Shown: positions 1-44,699 of the stretch, one piece after another | How positions within the stretch are numbered: position 1 is the first letter of the stretch | Layout: the number at the start of each line of letters is the position of its first letter | IMG/VR virus record: IMGVR_UViG_2541047873_000001 | Strand: one strand, 5' to 3' | Source: a virus | Lineage: Duplodnaviria; Heunggongvirae; Uroviricota; Caudoviricetes | Length of the DNA: 64,000 bases | Program-made: the position numbers and the translations under genes | The notes under the pieces: generated by a model | Told to the model about the DNA's origin: nothing | The model's database searches: none | Seen by the model: the letters and a program-made list of their open reading frames with translations, nothing else

Positions 1-671
1 GGCACCGTGCAAATACATGCCCGGCAGGTTTAGTGCGTAAAGTGGTTTCAGCGAGAGCATTTTACGGAGTAAACGACAGTGACTTGAGCCACGGAAGGTC
101 TTTTTATGGTGTTCATTGATGATGATCTGGCAGTGAGTATGTTAAGTGGGCCAGGCTGCATCGGGTCATCATCAGTGCACATCCTCAACGTTAAGGAGGC
201 GCAGAGTTGGGTTTTCCTCTTATTTTGCTGACTCTGAGTCTCCTTAACGTTGCGGTAATGCACCTATGCGGATGTGGCCTTGCATTGTGTCTTGAAAGAA
301 TGGGGTAAGGCCGGGGATATTCCCAGGGGGAGGCACCCCCGCTGCAACGAACAGCCATAGACGGCAGTCGAGTGATGAAAACGTGAAAAGACTTTAAACC
401 TCGTTACGGCTGGCGTGGCAAACGCGACAACCGGGATAGGACGGTGACGGGCGGAGAGAGAGCCGCTTCAAGATAAAAGCCGACTATGGATTCCTTTCTG
501 CGGGCCTTTGAAAGTGAATCTTGCTCAGGCAGTCGGCTTTTATGTTGATACGTAGCGATAACCGCGACAGGCGCGGCGGTAAGTATGGCGGGGTTATTCC
601 TTCCCCGTTGAGGACACCGAGTTGCCAGGTTGACCATACGCCTAAGTGGCAATACCGCGAGTGGGATATTT

Positions 672-697
672 GCCCACCTTCGGGTGGGTGTTTTTTC
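672..697 (+). terminator. rho-independent terminator-like hairpin
   Basis: Stem cccacc/ggtggg with ttcg loop followed by a T6 run; ORF 521-736 reads through it so is probably not real. Confidence 0.5.
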
Positions 698-1157
698 AGT
701 GTTTTCGTCATGGTTAGCGACTTTGCGGCGGTTTAGAACCCGACCATTAAAGTAAATGCAAACGATGATCTGATGATGGTAGCGGCCTAAGAAGCCTGAC
801 GCCACGGGGTATGAGTCGTCCCCCGTCAAAAAATCGACCGCAGAGTGTCCCCGTCTGTGTATTAGGGAACGGGGAGGCATAACAGGCAAGGGCGCTGGTG
901 TGATTAACCAGATGAATGAGAAGGGTCAGGTCTTTCTGGTCAGCGCCCTTACCTGTTACGTCCCTCCCGCGTAACAGCCATTGGTTAATGGCTTTCTGGG
1001 ATAATGTCTTGTAACGGGTATATCCCGTCATGCTGAAGGCGCTAATCACGCTGGAAGCCAGGGTTATGCATCCCCTGTTACCGAATTGCAGCCAGGGCGC
1101 GGTGCGCCGAAAAGCATACGGAGGTGGAAGCCCTCGCCGGAGACGTACCCGGCAAGT

Positions 1158-1234
1158 GATGGTGTAGCTCAGTAGGATAGAGCAGCAGCCTTCTAAGCTG
1201 TCGGTCGGTGGTTCGAATCCACCCACCATCGCCA
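1158..1234 (+). tRNA. tRNA-Arg (anticodon TCT)
   Basis: Cloverleaf by eye: 7 bp acceptor gatggtg/caccatc, D-arm gctc..gagc, anticodon loop cttctaa, T-arm ggtgg-ttcgaat-ccacc, encoded CCA. Confidence 0.8.
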
Positions 1235-1239
1235 ATTTA

Positions 1240-1326
1240 GGGGAGTTAGTCCGTAGGGGTAGCGGGGTAGACTGTAAATCTACTGTCATTGCGACTCGGA
1301 TGGTTCGACTCCATCACTCCCCACCA
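1240..1326 (+). tRNA. tRNA-Tyr (anticodon GTA), type II
   Basis: Acceptor ggggagt/actcccc, anticodon stem gtaga/tctac with loop ctgtaaa, long variable arm, T-loop ttcgact, encoded CCA. Confidence 0.75.
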
Positions 1327-1330
1327 AATT

Positions 1331-1406
1331 GCCGGTTTAGCTCAGTTGGTAGAGCGCCTGCCTTGTAAGCAGGATGTCAGCGGTTCGAGTCCGTTAACCG
1401 GCACCA
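1331..1406 (+). tRNA. tRNA-Thr (anticodon TGT)
   Basis: Acceptor gccggtt/aaccggc, D-arm gctcagttggtagagc, anticodon stem cctgc/gcagg with loop cttgtaa, T-loop ttcgagt, encoded CCA. Confidence 0.8.
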
Positions 1407-1414
1407 ACACAACA

Positions 1415-1488
1415 GGTAAGGGTATTTTGCGACGTCGGAGATCGCCGAGCTTGGCAGAGGGTTCGAATCCCTACGAAGTACCCTTACC
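1415..1488 (+). ncRNA. tRNA-like element (degenerate tRNA or structured small RNA)
   Basis: Perfect 10 bp closing helix ggtaagggta/tacccttacc enclosing a D-arm-like hairpin (gcga..tcgc) and a canonical T-arm (aggg-ttcgaat-ccct), but no anticodon arm can be fitted. Confidence 0.3.
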
Positions 1489-1594
1489 GTTGTGATGAAT
1501 GCACAGGCTGATGTGCCGCAACTACAGTAGTGCGCGCTTTGCGGGGCTTGCTACAACCCTGTGTCGGAGTTCAGCACCGACCATCACAATCACT

Positions 1595-1681
1595 GGAGAG
1601 TAGGGAGCATGGTGCTCAAGCGGTCTTGAAAACCGTCCCATTGCGCAAGCGATGATGGTTCGATTCCATTACTCTCCGCCA
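1595..1681 (+). tRNA. tRNA-Ser (anticodon TGA), type II
   Basis: Acceptor ggagagt/actctcc, anticodon loop cttgaaa, long variable arm, T-arm atgg-ttcgatt-ccat, encoded CCA. Confidence 0.75.
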
Positions 1682-2110
1682 GCGCAACGTTAAGAGTATT
1701 TGGCTAATTAAGCGAATGCCGGAAGCAGAACCGGATCACCAAATGCGTACAGGCGTCATCGCCGCCCAGTCAGCCAAATGCTCTTACCATTGCGGTGAAT
1801 GCGGCTAAGCGCACGCGGAACAGTTAAAACAGTAAAGGTGGTCTTTTTACTGGCGTAACGAGAATCCATAAGTGATCCGGCGTTAATTGTTAACTGGTTA
1901 ACGTCACCGGGAGGCACCCGGCACCGCAACCTAACAGCAATGGCGTTTTGTCTTAAAAGGTGGCTGCAAGTGATGGATTTTTGGGCGTTTGCCGATAAAA
2001 ACCCGGAGTGGACATTATTGTTTCTGCTGGTGGTTGCATACGGGGTAGAGCAAGCGGCAAAAGCCTTACGCGGTTCTGGCAAAAAGCGTAAGCGTAATTA
2101 ACAGTAATCT

Positions 2111-2186
2111 GGCCCTTTAGCTCAGTGGTTAGAGCGGGCGACTCATAATCGCACGGTCACCGGTTCAAGTCCGGTAGGGGCCACCA
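2111..2186 (+). tRNA. tRNA with CAT anticodon, most likely tRNA-Ile2 (lysidine type) rather than Met
   Basis: Acceptor ggccctt/aggggcc, D-arm gctcagtggttagagc, anticodon loop ctcataa, T-loop ttcaagt; body closely resembles E. coli ileX-type tRNA; P1 also encodes a tRNA-Ile. Confidence 0.7.
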
Positions 2187-2638
2187 CATTTGGTTGTAAC
2201 ACGGCGTATGGCACATGCGTCGTTAGCGGTCTGGTGTAGCTGTTAGGTACCTTTTACTAACACTGCATGGGCACACCAGGTAGCCGGAATGTGCAAGCCC
2301 CGTTCATAGCGTCGGACTGCGGATTCACCATCCTGGCGATTCGGTGTGACAGCCGGAAGAGCACGGCGTACAACAGGAAAAGGCGTTTAATTAGCGTGAG
2401 CGCCGTTTCCGTTGTGGTAATTGCGGCTATGCGCTCGTGACGAAGCCATTTTCATTCACTACGTTCTGATAAGTGTCGTCGCCGGGCGTGGCTAACCTGG
2501 CAGGTGGAGGCACCACCGCCACAACTCCTTTCAATTCATCATATAGCCGCTCAGGCTGTAACCCTTAATTAATACGAAGTTACGACGTCACTACCGGTTC
2601 AGCCGGGGGATAGTCGCGCGTGTAAAAAAGGAGACGTT

Positions 2639-3214
2639 ATGTTAACGGCGAACGATAACGCGTATTTAGAAGATGATCTCGTTTTGAGTGACTTTATAGG
2701 GCGACGAGAATGCTGGACGCAAAAGCGCGAGGAGCTTTATGCAGCGTTAGTTCGTAAAGGCGTCAACATCGAAACCGCACAGAACGGTGATATGACAGTG
2801 GTAAGTGTTGGACTGCACGGCGTAAGTGTGTCAGCAATCAATCATGAGCCGTACATTGCGTTATCCGAGTCGATGGTAAGGTTAGTTAAGTTCCTGAAGT
2901 ACACAGAAGCGAATAACGTGCTCATCGCCAAAAAGAACATCCCGTTCTCATCGGCCTTTTACTGGATGATGAAGGGGCTTGATGCCCGGCGAACATCATG
3001 GCCTAAAGGGAGCTATATATCGATGCTCCGTGGCAGTGTTGGTAGCAAAGAAAAGCTCGTCGAATTCCTGCCGGAAGAGGCATTCGATATTGTTGAAGGT
3101 TGTGATGTGATGGTTATGCCTCGCCTGGTAATGATGAATGGGGATTTACAGGCGCAGACAGACTGGTTTGCAACTGGAGTTGATATTATCGCTACTGACT
3201 GGGAGGTTTTTTGA
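2639..3214 (+). CDS. hypothetical protein with DUF2829-like C-terminal domain
   Basis: 191 aa ORF; C-terminal half has W..G...RR.SWPKG and terminal TDWFATGVDIIATDWEV signature resembling DUF2829 (Tad2-type) domains. Confidence 0.5.
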   Translation: MLTANDNAYLEDDLVLSDFIGRRECWTQKREELYAALVRKGVNIETAQNGDMTVVSVGLHGVSVSAINHEPYIALSESMVRLVKFLKYTEANNVLIAKKNIPFSSAFYWMMKGLDARRTSWPKGSYISMLRGSVGSKEKLVEFLPEEAFDIVEGCDVMVMPRLVMMNGDLQAQTDWFATGVDIIATDWEVF

Positions 3215-3607: not shown

Positions 3608-3625
3608 ATATTAATTTTCTAATAC
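3608..3625. promoter_or_regulatory. C1 operator-like site
   Basis: attaattttctaataca, one mismatch from the recurring 17-mer AAATTAATTTTCTAACA; sits ahead of the gene preceding pacA, as P1 Op88 sits ahead of lpa. Confidence 0.45.
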
Positions 3626-24987: not shown

Positions 24988-25592
24988 TTTTCTAACATTT
25001 TAAGTTGAATTATGAGATCCACCGTTGTACATTCACAACCGATTGGTACACCGGTCAACTTTTTGAGACAAACCGTTTGGTTTTTCGTATGATTGCCGCC
25101 GCCATACCAATGGCGGTGCAATATAGGTGGCTGAAAAGCCCCCGTTGACTCACGGTGTTCCAGCCTTTATTGCGCCGCCACCAGACCGTGGAACAGTCGA
25201 TGGCGGCTCCGAAAGCAAGGAGTCACTACACTATGAACAGCTACTGTCTTTTCCCATCACTCGTTGTCCGCCACTCACGCGATAATCTGCATTCTTTACT
25301 CGCGCTGGGGGTGTCAAAATGACCGTTCGCTACCTCAACTTTCAAATCCAGAACATCACTGGCGGTTGCTATGACTGGTTTGTCACTCTCGGAAAAGAAG
25401 TGATCACCGGGAAGCTGGATGAAGTGAAAGCTAAAGCAATGGCCTACGCCTGCAAGCAAGCCCAAAAGAAGAAAAGAAAAGCATAAGAAAACACACAGTT
25501 GCGCCCTGGCATTATCGTGGGGTATATTTCTACGGCACCTTAGAAAAACGGGTGCCGGGATTGGAACCCCGGATAATGCAAAAGGCGACACA

Positions 25593-25616
25593 GACGCCGA
25601 AAGCGTCTTTTTTTGT
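25593..25616 (+). terminator. rho-independent terminator
   Basis: gacgc-cgaaa-gcgtc hairpin followed by T7. Confidence 0.7.
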
Positions 25617-25639
25617 GTCATGCCATCGCACAGCCATGC

Positions 25640-25790
25640 GTAGCGTTTAGCTCAGAGATCAATGGTAGTGCTGGCTGGGCTGCCGAAAGGCAGGCCGGTT
25701 CCCTTTTGCGCCGGTAGTTCCAACCCAGTCAGTGCTACCGCCATTGAGATTGGAACCTCACGCGGTAGCTCCTTAAATTAGCAAAAGGAG
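25640..25790 (+). ncRNA. c4-like structured regulatory RNA candidate
   Basis: No ORF; 16 bp stem (25664-25679 with 25724-25739) enclosing hairpins; repeated GGTAG/CTACC elements complementary to the region just ahead of the downstream RBS; position matches P1 c4. Confidence 0.35.
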
Positions 25791-43485: not shown

Positions 43486-43812
43486 ATGACTAAAAATACT
43501 CGTTTTTCCCCCGAAGTCCGTCAACGGGCAGTCCGTATGGTTCTGGAAAGTCAGAGCGAATATGACTCACAATGGGCGACAATTTGTTCCATTGCTCCAA
43601 AGATTGGCTGTACGCCGGAGACTCTGCGTGTCTGGGTTCGCCAGCATGAGCGGGATACCGGGGGCGGTGATGGAGGGCTCACCACCGCTGAACGTCAGCG
43701 TCTGAAAGAGCTGGAACGTGAAAATCGTGAACTGCGCCGCAGTAACGATATCCTTCGCCAGGCTTCCGCTTATTTTGCGAAGGCGGAGTTCGACCGCCTC
43801 TGGAAAAAATGA
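43486..43812 (+). CDS. IS629 transposase OrfA
   Basis: 108 aa HTH/leucine-zipper protein, recognised as IS629 OrfA by eye. Confidence 0.9.
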
Positions 43813-44699
43813 TGCCACTGCTGGATAAGCTGCGTGAGCAGTACGGGGTCGGACCGCTATGCAGCGAACTGCATATTGCCCCGTCAACGTATTACCACTG
43901 TCAGCAACAGCGACATCATCCGGATAAACGCAGTGCCCGTGCGCAGCGCGATGACTGGCTGAAGAAAGAGATACAGCGCGTATACGATGAAAATCACAAG
44001 GTATACGGTGTGCGTAAAGTCTGGCGTCAGTTGTTACGGGAAGGTATCAGAGTGGCCAGATGCACTGTGGCACGTCTCATGGCGGTTATGGGACTTGCCG
44101 GTGTTCTCCGGGGTAAAAAGGTCCGTACGACCATCAGCCGGAAAGCCGTTGCCGCAGGCGACCGCGTAAACCGTCAGTTCGTGGCAGAACGACCTGACCA
44201 GCTGTGGGTGGCTGATTTTACTTACGTCAGCACATGGCGGGGCTTCGTCTATGTGGCGTTCATCATTGATGTGTTTGCCGGATACATCGTGGGGTGGCGG
44301 GTCTCATCGTCCATGGAAACGACATTCGTGCTGGATGCACTGGAGCAGGCGTTATGGGCCCGTCGACCGTCCGGCACGGTCCATCACAGTGATAAAGGTT
44401 CTCAGTATGTATCGCTGGCCTACACACAGCGGCTTAAGGAAGCCGGATTACTGGCATCAACAGGAAGTACAGGCGACTCGTATGACAACGCGATGGCGGA
44501 GAGCATCAATGGTCTTTACAAAGCGGAGGTAATACACCGTAAGAGCTGGAAAAACCGTGCAGAAGTGGAACTGGCCACACTCACGTGGGTGGACTGGTAT
44601 AACAATCGACGATTGCTGGAAAGGCTGGGCCATACTCCTCCGGCAGAAGCAGAAAAAGCTTATTATGCTTCCATCGGAAACGATGATCTGGCAGCCTGA
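43809..44699 (+). CDS. IS629 transposase OrfB (DDE catalytic domain)
   Basis: 296 aa in the -1 frame relative to orfA, overlap at the A-rich aaaaaatg region consistent with programmed frameshifting. Confidence 0.9.

Follow-up and report, generated by a model that had tools for sequence, protein, structure and literature searches.

A tmRNA-related RNA lacking a tRNA-like domain in the untranslated leader upstream of a phage tRNA island

The first 1,157 nucleotides of a 64,000-nucleotide stretch of viral DNA (hereafter the window; Caudoviricetes, IMG/VR record IMGVR_UViG_2541047873_000001), which corresponds to a D6/P1-type plasmid-prophage of Escherichia coli, are the distal part of an untranslated leader of ~1.3 kb that runs into an island of tRNA genes. 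This region is non-coding and consists of separately conserved structured RNA modules, all of them on the plus strand. Among these modules is an RNA of ~175 nt, at positions 699-874, that is related to transfer-messenger RNA (tmRNA) but has no tRNA-like domain, and that, judged from sequence homology and covariation, goes back to the coding piece of a circularly permuted (two-piece) tmRNA and has lost the acceptor strand and the T-arm. The element is under strong purifying selection and is widely spread among enterobacterial phages. Taken as a whole, the region is best explained as the leader of an RNA operon whose tmRNA-derived RNA serves as a tag template in trans-translation, a reading towards which the evidence leans and that we hold with reserve.

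In the current picture, tmRNA is an obligatory union of tRNA-like and mRNA-like parts, and a conserved, apparently translated template without an acceptor arm challenges that picture. It raises the questions of whether trans-translation can use a template in trans, and of whether phages thereby control ribosome rescue or tagging. The element also exposes an annotation gap, namely that P1 is among the best-annotated phages and yet the RNA is unlabelled in its record. It is common, in E. coli genomes as well as among phages that have been considered as therapeutics (Ackermannviridae, Schitoviridae and Drexlerviridae), and it gives annotators a new, concrete RNA family to model.

Architecture and ancestry of the tmRNA-related RNA

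The RNA begins with a 5' domain (699-757) that includes GUUUUCGUC, a conserved analogue of the D-loop motif of tmRNA, and leads into a GCA resume codon at 758, from which a frame encoding the tag ANDDLMMVAA (758-787) runs to a TAA stop codon (788-790). The context of this frame, UAAAU-GCA-AAC-GAU...GCC-UAA at 753-790, aligns to the consensus of the Rfam family tmRNA_permuted, and its upstream portion, (U)AAAU-GCA, matches that of bona fide tmRNAs exactly; none of a set of 14 diverse homologues has lost the frame. As expected of a tmRNA, the stop codon lies inside a helix-5-like stem (777-780/801-804 and 784-786/794-796), which is followed by two H-type pseudoknots, pseudoknot a (805-809/821-825 and 815-818/835-838) and pseudoknot b (839-844/854-859 and 849-853/870-874).

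Each of these stems is found in four to eight distinct Watson-Crick versions among the 14 diverse sequences. In a MAFFT alignment, 93.8% of the cells of helix 5 and pseudoknot a are paired, as compared with 77% in shuffles and 30-53% when the partners are slid by one to three columns, and 11 of the 15 pairs tested have changed in a compensatory manner; for the pseudoknot stem this is true of all four pairs, with 98% of cells paired. Conserved G-U pairs in the stems fit the plus strand only. The 5' domain, where a tmRNA would have pseudoknot 1, between its tRNA-like domain and the tag, is conserved, and none of its helices has covariation support. A long-range helix (UGCG/CGCA) that RNAalifold placed between the 5' domain and the region between the pseudoknots was rejected, being invariant and clashing with stem 1 of pseudoknot b, which covaries at the contested position.

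The tag itself changes in a coding-like manner. Pairwise differences at codon positions 1, 2 and 3 number 177, 90 and 250, the order 3>1>2 that is typical of coding sequence, and the tag is always ten codons followed by TAA, ending in Ala-Ala (Val-Ala in two sequences), with both other frames closed in every sequence. In codons 5-8 the second position is mostly U, giving hydrophobic residues. From these patterns, the tag looks like a translated frame.

The nearest known relatives of the element are two-piece tmRNAs carried by phages. When viral contigs (loci L134-L247) were scanned for the resume motif TAAATGCAAACGAYRA, 244 sites were recovered, and for 61 of these ARAGORN, run at default settings, reports a complete, bona fide circularly permuted tmRNA gene; phage-borne two-piece tmRNAs are thus common in metagenomic viral contigs. 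The tags of these bona fide molecules mostly end in ...ALAA, although ANDERFLMAA, ANDNAFLMAA and ANDNSYRMVA also occur. A profile built from 59 bona fide phage coding pieces matches window positions 742-834 with E = 1.8e-7 (nhmmer), and the reverse profile matches true coding pieces down to 5e-11, over the tag, helix 5 and the first downstream pseudoknot. ARAGORN run at relaxed (80%) thresholds likewise detects the resume consensus and the tag. The Rfam tmRNA_permuted model scores 24.1 bits in the window (E 0.0064) and 26.5-33.5 bits in six distant homologues, values that all lie below the gathering score of 47. The original prediction, that this part of the genome may encode structured RNAs, is supported by comparison: the conservation seen in several segments is one of RNA structure, with changes that compensate each other and G-U pairs that fit a single strand, and one of these segments is homologous to tmRNA coding pieces in profile searches made in both directions.

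E. coli ssrA, whose tag is ANDENYALAA, aligns with the element over the tag only, and the element is thus a relative of phage-borne permuted tmRNAs rather than a copy of the host gene. True permuted genes consist of an acceptor piece (with T-arm and CAGGUCC-A-CCA), a spacer, and a coding piece starting GGGGCUGA-UCAGUUUCGAC; the enterobacterial elements keep the D-loop analogue, (C)AGUUUUCGUC, with no acceptor strand before it. With the two-piece tmRNA coding piece (Rfam RF04321/RF01849-51, including phage-borne copies) the element shares the resume context UAAAU-GCA-AAC-GA, a tag that starts with AND and ends in Ala-Ala before the stop, the placement of that stop inside a helix-5-type hairpin, a downstream pseudoknot and AACAGAAU-like linker, and a UUUCGAC-type D-loop analogue near the 5' end. 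It differs in having neither a GGGGCUG-type 5' acceptor strand nor an upstream acceptor piece (T-arm, CCA), in escaping the default ARAGORN call and the Rfam gathering score, and in a tag that is always ten codons with a hydrophobic LMMV/VVLM core. No acceptor stem with G3-U70, T-arm and 3' CCA was found for it in one piece or in two, and Rfam has no match to a tmRNA tRNA-domain anywhere in the 64-kb window.

Distribution and candidate functions

A search with positions 660-1157 returned 70-85% matches to ~701-876 in unrelated phages, where the element occupies gene-free spots that are often near tRNA genes. In the Ackermannviridae it is present in Erwinia phage phiEa2809 (tag ANDNEFKVAA) and Klebsiella phage Magnus (ANDDVVLMAA), in the Schitoviridae in E. 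coli phages PBM-3/ECBP1 (ANDDVVLMAA in PBM-3), in the Drexlerviridae in Cronobacter phage CS01 (ANDDLMLMAA), and in the Chaseviridae in Aeromonas phage pAh6-C (ANDDLMLAAA); Salmonella phage Akira encodes ANDDVILMAA, and the window, P1 and D6 share ANDDLMMVAA. All copies have (A)UAAAU, the 10-codon frame and TAA. Altogether the element spans no fewer than five phage families as well as lambdoid prophages. Of 5,426 complete E. coli genomes, 660 (12%) carry it, at 582 plasmid and 140 chromosomal places, almost always unannotated among the records listed. The P1 copy, at ~68,885-69,062 of NC_005856, is unlabelled and starts where an annotated 'dicF-like region' ends. In two E. coli chromosomal lambdoid prophages (L289 and L290, 2141-3214) the genes for the Q antiterminator and the holin are separated by 1.07 kb free of genes, and the element lies there, with the tags ANDDVVLMAA and ANDDLMLMAA, a terminator-like hairpin before it and long hairpins flanking it. 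To judge from its position in these genomes, the element would sit in lytic-growth transcripts in three settings: a C1-controlled early operon (P1/D6), a late operon (lambdoid prophages), and behind a promoter of its own (Akira).

Conservation among D6/P1-like genomes, a check that the original prediction had suggested, differs strongly along the leader. In 66 distinct P1/D6-type sequences there is next to no change at 698-870 and 1020-1157, and free variation in the hairpin tips and at 950-1020. Copies of the element in P1/D6-like elements are 96-100% identical to one another, while flanking parts of the leader are ~15% different or replaced. No earlier description of the element was found in the searchable literature, outside of which older P1 and dicF papers lie, so a prior mention is possible; none of six tag peptides searched for was found there, nor were relevant reports on phage tmRNA-like or dicF-like RNAs or on P1 RNA-seq.

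Under the reading favoured here, trans-translation in the course of phage growth would still use the RNA as its tag template, and another molecule would take the tRNA-like role, the candidates being the phage's own mini-tRNA-like hairpin at 1405-1503 and the host's Ala-tmRNA with SmpB. A more specific proposal, which we regard as tentative and rather doubtful, is that P1, D6-type plasmid-prophages, lambdoid prophages and several virulent families possess a 'headless' tmRNA whose template may be decoded on stalled ribosomes, either via a separate mini-tRNA-like RNA, which would be a new split architecture, or by take-over of the template after entry of the host Ala-tmRNA-SmpB. If this were true, the phage would rewrite the degradation tag (ANDDLMMVAA for ANDENYALAA) on the products of stalled ribosomes in lytic growth.

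Non-canonical tRNA-like hairpins bearing a T-arm lie within a few hundred nucleotides of the element in most loci. The one in the window is a mini-tRNA-like element (1405-1503), a long hairpin within which lie a T-arm (GAGGG-TTCGAAT-CCCTA) and an acceptor-like stem of 7 bp (TATTTTG/CGAAGTA), and for which neither ARAGORN nor Rfam makes a call. Hairpins of this type are also present in P1, in D6 and in the unrelated viral contigs L186 and L204, in the latter directly 5' of the element, and their acceptor-like stem has changed in a compensatory manner (TATTTTG/CGAAGTA, CATTGCG/CGCAGTG and CATTGGG/CTCAGTG), with a U3-G70 wobble in all three versions. The type could be a separately encoded tRNA-like partner or a mere processing signal. 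A GAUC kissing contact between the tag and the loop of the mini-tRNA was considered and discarded; it is not conserved, and the L186 tag has no GATC.

A number of observations weigh against the trans-translation reading, beginning with the Rfam scores given above. Run at default settings, ARAGORN reports no tmRNA for the window or for seven homologous loci, its calls at 80% thresholds propose different and unconvincing tRNA domains in each phage and were rejected, and a profile built from true acceptor pieces has no match. The element of Akira has a perfect TTGACA-17-TAGATT promoter at so short a distance upstream that its RNA has to begin at about the conserved motif, which leaves no room for a 5' acceptor strand. 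The mini-tRNA has U3-G70 rather than the alanine identity pair G3-U70, and no encoded CCA. No T-arm-like element is found in the whole leader of L289 and of some other lambdoid prophages, so a phage-encoded partner is not universal, and as for pairing with the host molecule, the duplexes predicted with E. coli ssrA have energies in the range of those of shuffled sequences (z -1.9 to +2.1). Helix 5 includes the 3' half of the tag, and the conservation of that half may be partly structural. Finally, a strong terminator stands immediately upstream of the RNA, and that the leader RNAs are expressed and cleaved is something we infer.

The main rival explanation, which we consider unlikely, is that the RNA is an untranslated decoy or inhibitor of host ribosome rescue that binds SmpB, ribosomal protein S1 or RNase R. 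Such an RNA would mirror that of mycobacteriophage DS6A, which carries a tmRNA fragment consisting only of the tRNA-like domain, a kind of molecule that has been reported to inhibit tmRNA (PMC4131195, PMC11915505). Phage interference with trans-translation therefore has a precedent, and the failure to find a tRNA-like domain, along with conservation of the D-loop-analogue motif GUUUUCGUC, would suit a decoy. Both phages have only one half of a tmRNA, and partial tmRNAs kept by phages may act on trans-translation (PMC4131195, PMC11915505), but DS6A keeps the tRNA-like domain and no tag, whereas the element keeps the tag template and pseudoknots and no tRNA-like domain. An untranslated decoy also sits poorly with the coding-like substitutions in the tag, with the constant length of ten codons, the Ala-Ala (or Val-Ala) ending and stop in a frame whose alternatives are closed, and with a resume context that is the same as that of bona fide tmRNAs.

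It is less probable still that the region is a regulatory or processing leader only, tuning the tRNAs and downstream genes, and that the tmRNA-like segment is a functionless relic. The terminator between the promoter and the tRNAs would fit such a role, as would the long processing-type hairpins that flank every unit and the cassette-like shuffling of modules, exemplified by the absence of the segment at 559-658 (region A) from D6 and of the module at 350-462 (module M) from Shigella-type plasmids. A relic, however, would not be expected to be the most conserved part of the leader, to be kept in phage families that otherwise share nothing with P1, or to show compensatory evolution in four stems, and in CS01 and L289/L290 no tRNA gene is called near the element.

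Leader context, the dicF-related part and coding potential

The original prediction described ~1.1 kb without coding potential. The ORF-free character of this stretch stands, whereas its extent does not: in plasmid NZ_CP104667.1, which is 100% identical to the window over 1-560, the upstream pmgS-like gene ends 188 nt before base 1, so the gene-free stretch is ~1,345 nt rather than 1,157. Five tRNA genes follow from 1158 onward. Within positions 1-2700 there are partial matches, at 91% to phage D6 and at 88% to P1, and the GC content over 1-1157 is 53.1%, near the ~52% first estimated.

The annotation of P1 places the C1-controlled promoter Pban and the C1 operator Op72 right before the homologous segment. 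In the plasmid that is identical over 1-560, a sigma-70-like promoter, TTGATT-17-TAGAAT, is found ~125-150 nt upstream of base 1, outside of the window (L004 3815-3978), and is flanked by three TGTTAGAAA(N3)AA-type sites, a motif that we take to resemble the C1 operator of P1. The TGTTAGAAA-type motif TGTTAGAAANNNAA occurs at 11 sites in the 64-kb window, as compared to 1.5 expected, and none of 100 shuffles reaches 11; the sites are at 3611, 8053, 9448, 19289, 24337, 24353, 24984, 28467, 36103, 45491 and 48505, of which 24337 and 24353 form an inverted pair. Given this presumed likeness and the annotation of P1, TGTTAGAAANNNAA is a candidate operator of a D6-type C1 repressor, and the leader would be repressor-controlled as is P1's Pban.

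The arrangement suggests a stable-RNA operon, controlled by the repressor and expressed in lytic growth, that would be for D6-type elements what the 5' part of the ban operon is for P1, with 1-1157 as an untranslated leader continuing into the tRNA island. The transcript would start ~120 nt upstream of base 1 and would be shared with the tRNA cluster; cuts at long near-perfect hairpins (170-268 and 871-967) and at the tRNA and tRNA-like structures, by RNase III, RNase P and RNase E, would free separate small RNAs. The other modules, namely a dicF-locus leader with its terminator, an STnc100-like cloverleaf and module M, would be separate RNA units shuffled among phages. The original prediction had named neither the first two of these nor the tmRNA-like RNA, and although it recorded the strong terminator, which is indeed present at 672-696 as GCCCACCTTCGGGTGGGTG followed by T6, it did not weigh the position of this terminator between the promoter and the tRNAs, as a consequence of which read-through of the terminator, or processing, must be assumed.

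The leader is a mosaic. By blastn, positions 1-547 are common only to D6-like elements (~85%), 548-666 are present in P1, directly downstream of Pban, but not in D6 itself, and 667-1236 are common to P1, D6 and the window. The module at 350-462 is absent from other relatives, and each module has been gained or lost on its own. Region A (559-658) is a leader element 86% identical to P1 and 92% identical to the lambdoid phage Tritos; it overlaps the 'dicF-like region' of P1 (~window 614-705), and it contains a hairpin whose CGGGG/CCCCG stem is CTGGG/CCCAG in P1. Within it, positions 562-658 and the stretch immediately before DicF in lambdoid phages such as Tritos (L003 2501-2598) are 92% identical, while 1791-1928, past four tRNAs, are 78% identical to the segment downstream of DicF (Tritos L003 2695-2818).

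These two flanks, and the label in the P1 annotation, are the grounds on which the region might be thought to encode a DicF-type antisense small RNA that blocks ftsZ translation and cell division, a possibility that we regard as very improbable. In the place that DicF occupies in lambdoid phages there is an intrinsic-terminator-like hairpin (671-697), detected by a terminator scan and consisting of a GC-rich 8-bp stem (five G-C pairs), a UUCG loop and a U6 tract; P1, D6 and the window all keep this predicted terminator, which ends 2-5 nt short of the tmRNA-like RNA and, together with the start of that RNA, replaces the DicF sequence. The Rfam DicF model (RF00039) scores 72.5 bits in Tritos, which served as a positive control, and has no match at E<=1 in window positions 1-3000 and none above the gathering score in P1. 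Since DicF itself is absent from P1 and the window, the P1 label appears, on this sequence comparison, to reflect flanking homology only. Alignment by MAFFT had also suggested DicF as a homologue of the element's 5' domain, a candidate that was dropped when neither a 5'-domain profile in nhmmer nor Rfam gave a match. The dicF locus of Qin/Rac-type lambdoid prophages does resemble the leader in its homologous flanks and in being a long untranslated stretch of a phage operon that is processed to small RNAs, as the window transcript presumably would be; DicF undergoes processing by RNase III as well as by RNase E (PMC5069750). It differs in that the window has no DicF and its two flanks are 1.1 kb apart, holding the terminator, the tmRNA-like RNA and four tRNAs.

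Two further features involve region A. There are two copies of a hairpin that has a 9-nt loop and ACCGARTTGC behind it, at 588-636 and 1058-1100 (GGGTTATTCCTTCCCCGTT...ACCGAGTTGCCAGG and GGGTTATGCATCCCCTGTTACCGAATTGCAGCCAGG), so placed that the tmRNA-like RNA lies between them. In addition, positions 590-622 (GGCGGGG-UUAUUCCUU-CCCCGU-UGAGGAC-A-CCG) resemble by eye a T-arm, 3' acceptor strand and ACCA, and were considered as a relic of a tmRNA acceptor piece. This reading was rejected: a 60-piece acceptor profile gives no hit there, no 5' strand complementary to it was found, and D6 lacks region A.

The notion that the region conceals small or unusual protein-coding genes can be dismissed as extremely improbable, because the minus-strand ORFs of 161 and 180 codons on which it draws, and the 'hypothetical protein' that PGAP places at the homologous spot in 4 of 30 listed E. 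coli records, are set against open stretches within the range of shuffles (the longest stop-free stretch, of 173 codons on the minus strand, overlaps the tRNAs; shuffles have a mean of 120, sd 30 and a maximum of 213), an antisense course of the 180-codon ORF through two tRNA genes, the absence of any Pfam family match among seven ORF translations of the region, the absence of an annotated gene beneath the match in the 40 listed of 120 matching plasmid records, and compensatory changes and hypervariable hairpin tips that suit RNA structure and not codons. The detailed annotation of P1 similarly has no coding sequence within the homologous part. Protein-coding readings of the ORFs were accordingly rejected, and the initial claim of no credible ORF over 1-1157 is upheld by shuffles, Pfam and annotations alike.

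Processing hairpins and other RNA modules

Folding of single sequences in a sliding window, scored as z values, with individual hairpins compared to dinucleotide shuffles, gave z of approximately -5 to -6 at 151-300 and 841-990 and approximately -3 at 451-570, the remainder being unremarkable. The proximal leader segment (1-169), restricted to D6-like elements and ~85% identical between window-type and D6-type plasmids, has no annotated gene; a weak hairpin is formed by 103-125/166-188. It is followed by a long hairpin of 26 pairs (170-268; Ha), a candidate RNase III-type processing site. A hairpin drawn over 160-275 has an energy of -52.1 kcal/mol and z = -6.7, with none of 200 shuffles as good. 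The perfect 13-nt repeat reported previously is found here, as CAACGTTAAGGAG at 186-198 and CTCCTTAACGTTG at 240-252 around the nested CAGAGT (202-207) and ACTCTG (231-236). Ha is kept in nine distinct homologues, with four compensatory pairs, including a G-C within the 13-mer that is A-U in D6-type copies, and with a hypervariable tip. A second long hairpin (871-967; Hb), with ~27 pairs, -53.4 kcal/mol and z -4.6, stands directly 3' of the tmRNA-like RNA, and in 66 unique homologues its stem is conserved and its tip variable.

Ha and Hb belong to a family of long hairpins (LH) with paralogous arms at 170-268, 871-967, 1405-1503, 1680-1800 and 2365-2430, in which arm sequences are common (CAACAGGTAAG.../...CTTACCGTTGTGGTGAA) and tips are unrelated. 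Copies also exist in Akira, Magnus, phiEa2809, pAh6-C, a Pantoea plasmid, P22-like phages and lambdoid prophages. In Akira, Magnus, phiEa2809 and the lambdoid prophages they lie next to the tmRNA-like RNA, and in pAh6-C they bracket it on both sides. In the Pantoea plasmid (L126, NZ_CP034366.1), at ~2775-2870, an LH hairpin precedes a tRNA-like gene with the acceptor TGTGATG/CATCGCA, CAT at the anticodon position and a ~30-nt insertion in the anticodon-arm region, for which ARAGORN makes no call.

RNase III processing stems are familiar from the early RNA of phage T7 and from rRNA operons, and by analogy with these the LH hairpins are probably RNase III processing sites; both Ha and Hb offer at least ~20 bp of near-continuous double-stranded RNA between units and are predicted sites. 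The likeness lies in repeated hairpins of 20-30 near-perfect base pairs between the RNA units of one long transcript. The hairpins of the window differ in sharing conserved arms, and in that the 3' tail of each also supplies the 5' strand of the stem that closes the next unit: this tail (GUUGYGGU...) pairs with a downstream ...RCYRCAAC, closing either an empty stem or a multi-hairpin unit. Non-coding gaps beside phage tRNA genes look like arrays of small-RNA cassettes punctuated by processing hairpins, with tRNAs, tRNA-like RNAs, STnc100/PasD-like units, DicF and the tmRNA-like RNA as cassettes.

One such unit is cloverleaf-like (248-349), with a closing stem (248-256/341-349) whose 3' strand is abutted by a 5-bp hairpin with an AGGCA loop (326-340). 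In minimum-free-energy (MFE) folds, 248-349 has the same architecture as 1790-1931, 2411-2526 and the unit that follows DicF in Tritos (L003 2689-2824), the latter three having closing stems of 8-13 bp and the invariant AGGCA-loop hairpin beside the 3' strand. The stem of this hairpin varies by copy (GGGGG/CCCCC, CCGGG/CCCGG, GGTGG/CCACC and CCTGG/CCAGG), and 248-349 is nearly invariant across D6-like clades. The paralogy within the window suggests that 248-349 is a compact paralogue of STnc100-like units. An Rfam search, another of the checks initially suggested, returned, besides the tmRNA_permuted match, STnc100 (RF02076) at 1790-1931 with 40.8 bits, which is just below threshold (47.8 bits in a near-identical plasmid), and no DicF match. 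The STnc100 covariance model has no match at E<=1 on 248-349. Thus 248-349 shares the closed multi-hairpin shape of 1790-1931, and hence of STnc100/PasD prophage small RNAs, but is ~40 nt shorter and has no Rfam match.

Module M (350-462) is a conserved non-coding segment that the window has in common with a Pantoea plasmid and a Klebsiella P22-like phage. Its core (~373-447) is near-identical in ~40 viral contigs of ~40 kb (P22-like), and it is absent from the Shigella-type relatives L124 and L125. Next to it, at 468-548, is a hairpin with an 18-bp stem, AAAAGCCGACT.../...AGTCGGCTTTT, an inverted repeat that is 94% complementary (-38.6 kcal/mol, z -3.4). Downstream of Hb, the MFE fold contains a small unit closed by ACCUGUUACG/UGUAACGGGU (951-1021), which encloses a hairpin at 976-993 and varies more than any other part of the leader; P1 has, in place of the inner hairpin, a different sequence that, by eye, also forms a hairpin. 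The last segment (1022-1157), which abuts the first tRNA and is possibly a pre-tRNA leader, shows almost no variation among P1-, D6- and window-type sequences, and has no homologue outside P1/D6-like elements among the matches listed; at 1061-1100 it holds a copy of the hairpin motif of region A.

Beyond the leader and the tRNA island, a 191-codon ORF (2639-3214) is labelled 'MW1434 family type I TA system toxin' in the identical plasmid, an odd label for a protein of this size. At 25106-25745 there are two matches to C4 antisense RNA (76.7 and 39.5 bits) and one to isrK (62.5 bits), and this is presumably the immI-type immunity region of the prophage. An ALIL pseudoknot, the frameshift signal of IS3-family transposases, is matched with 120 bits at 43767-43883, and thus an insertion sequence is present in the plasmid.

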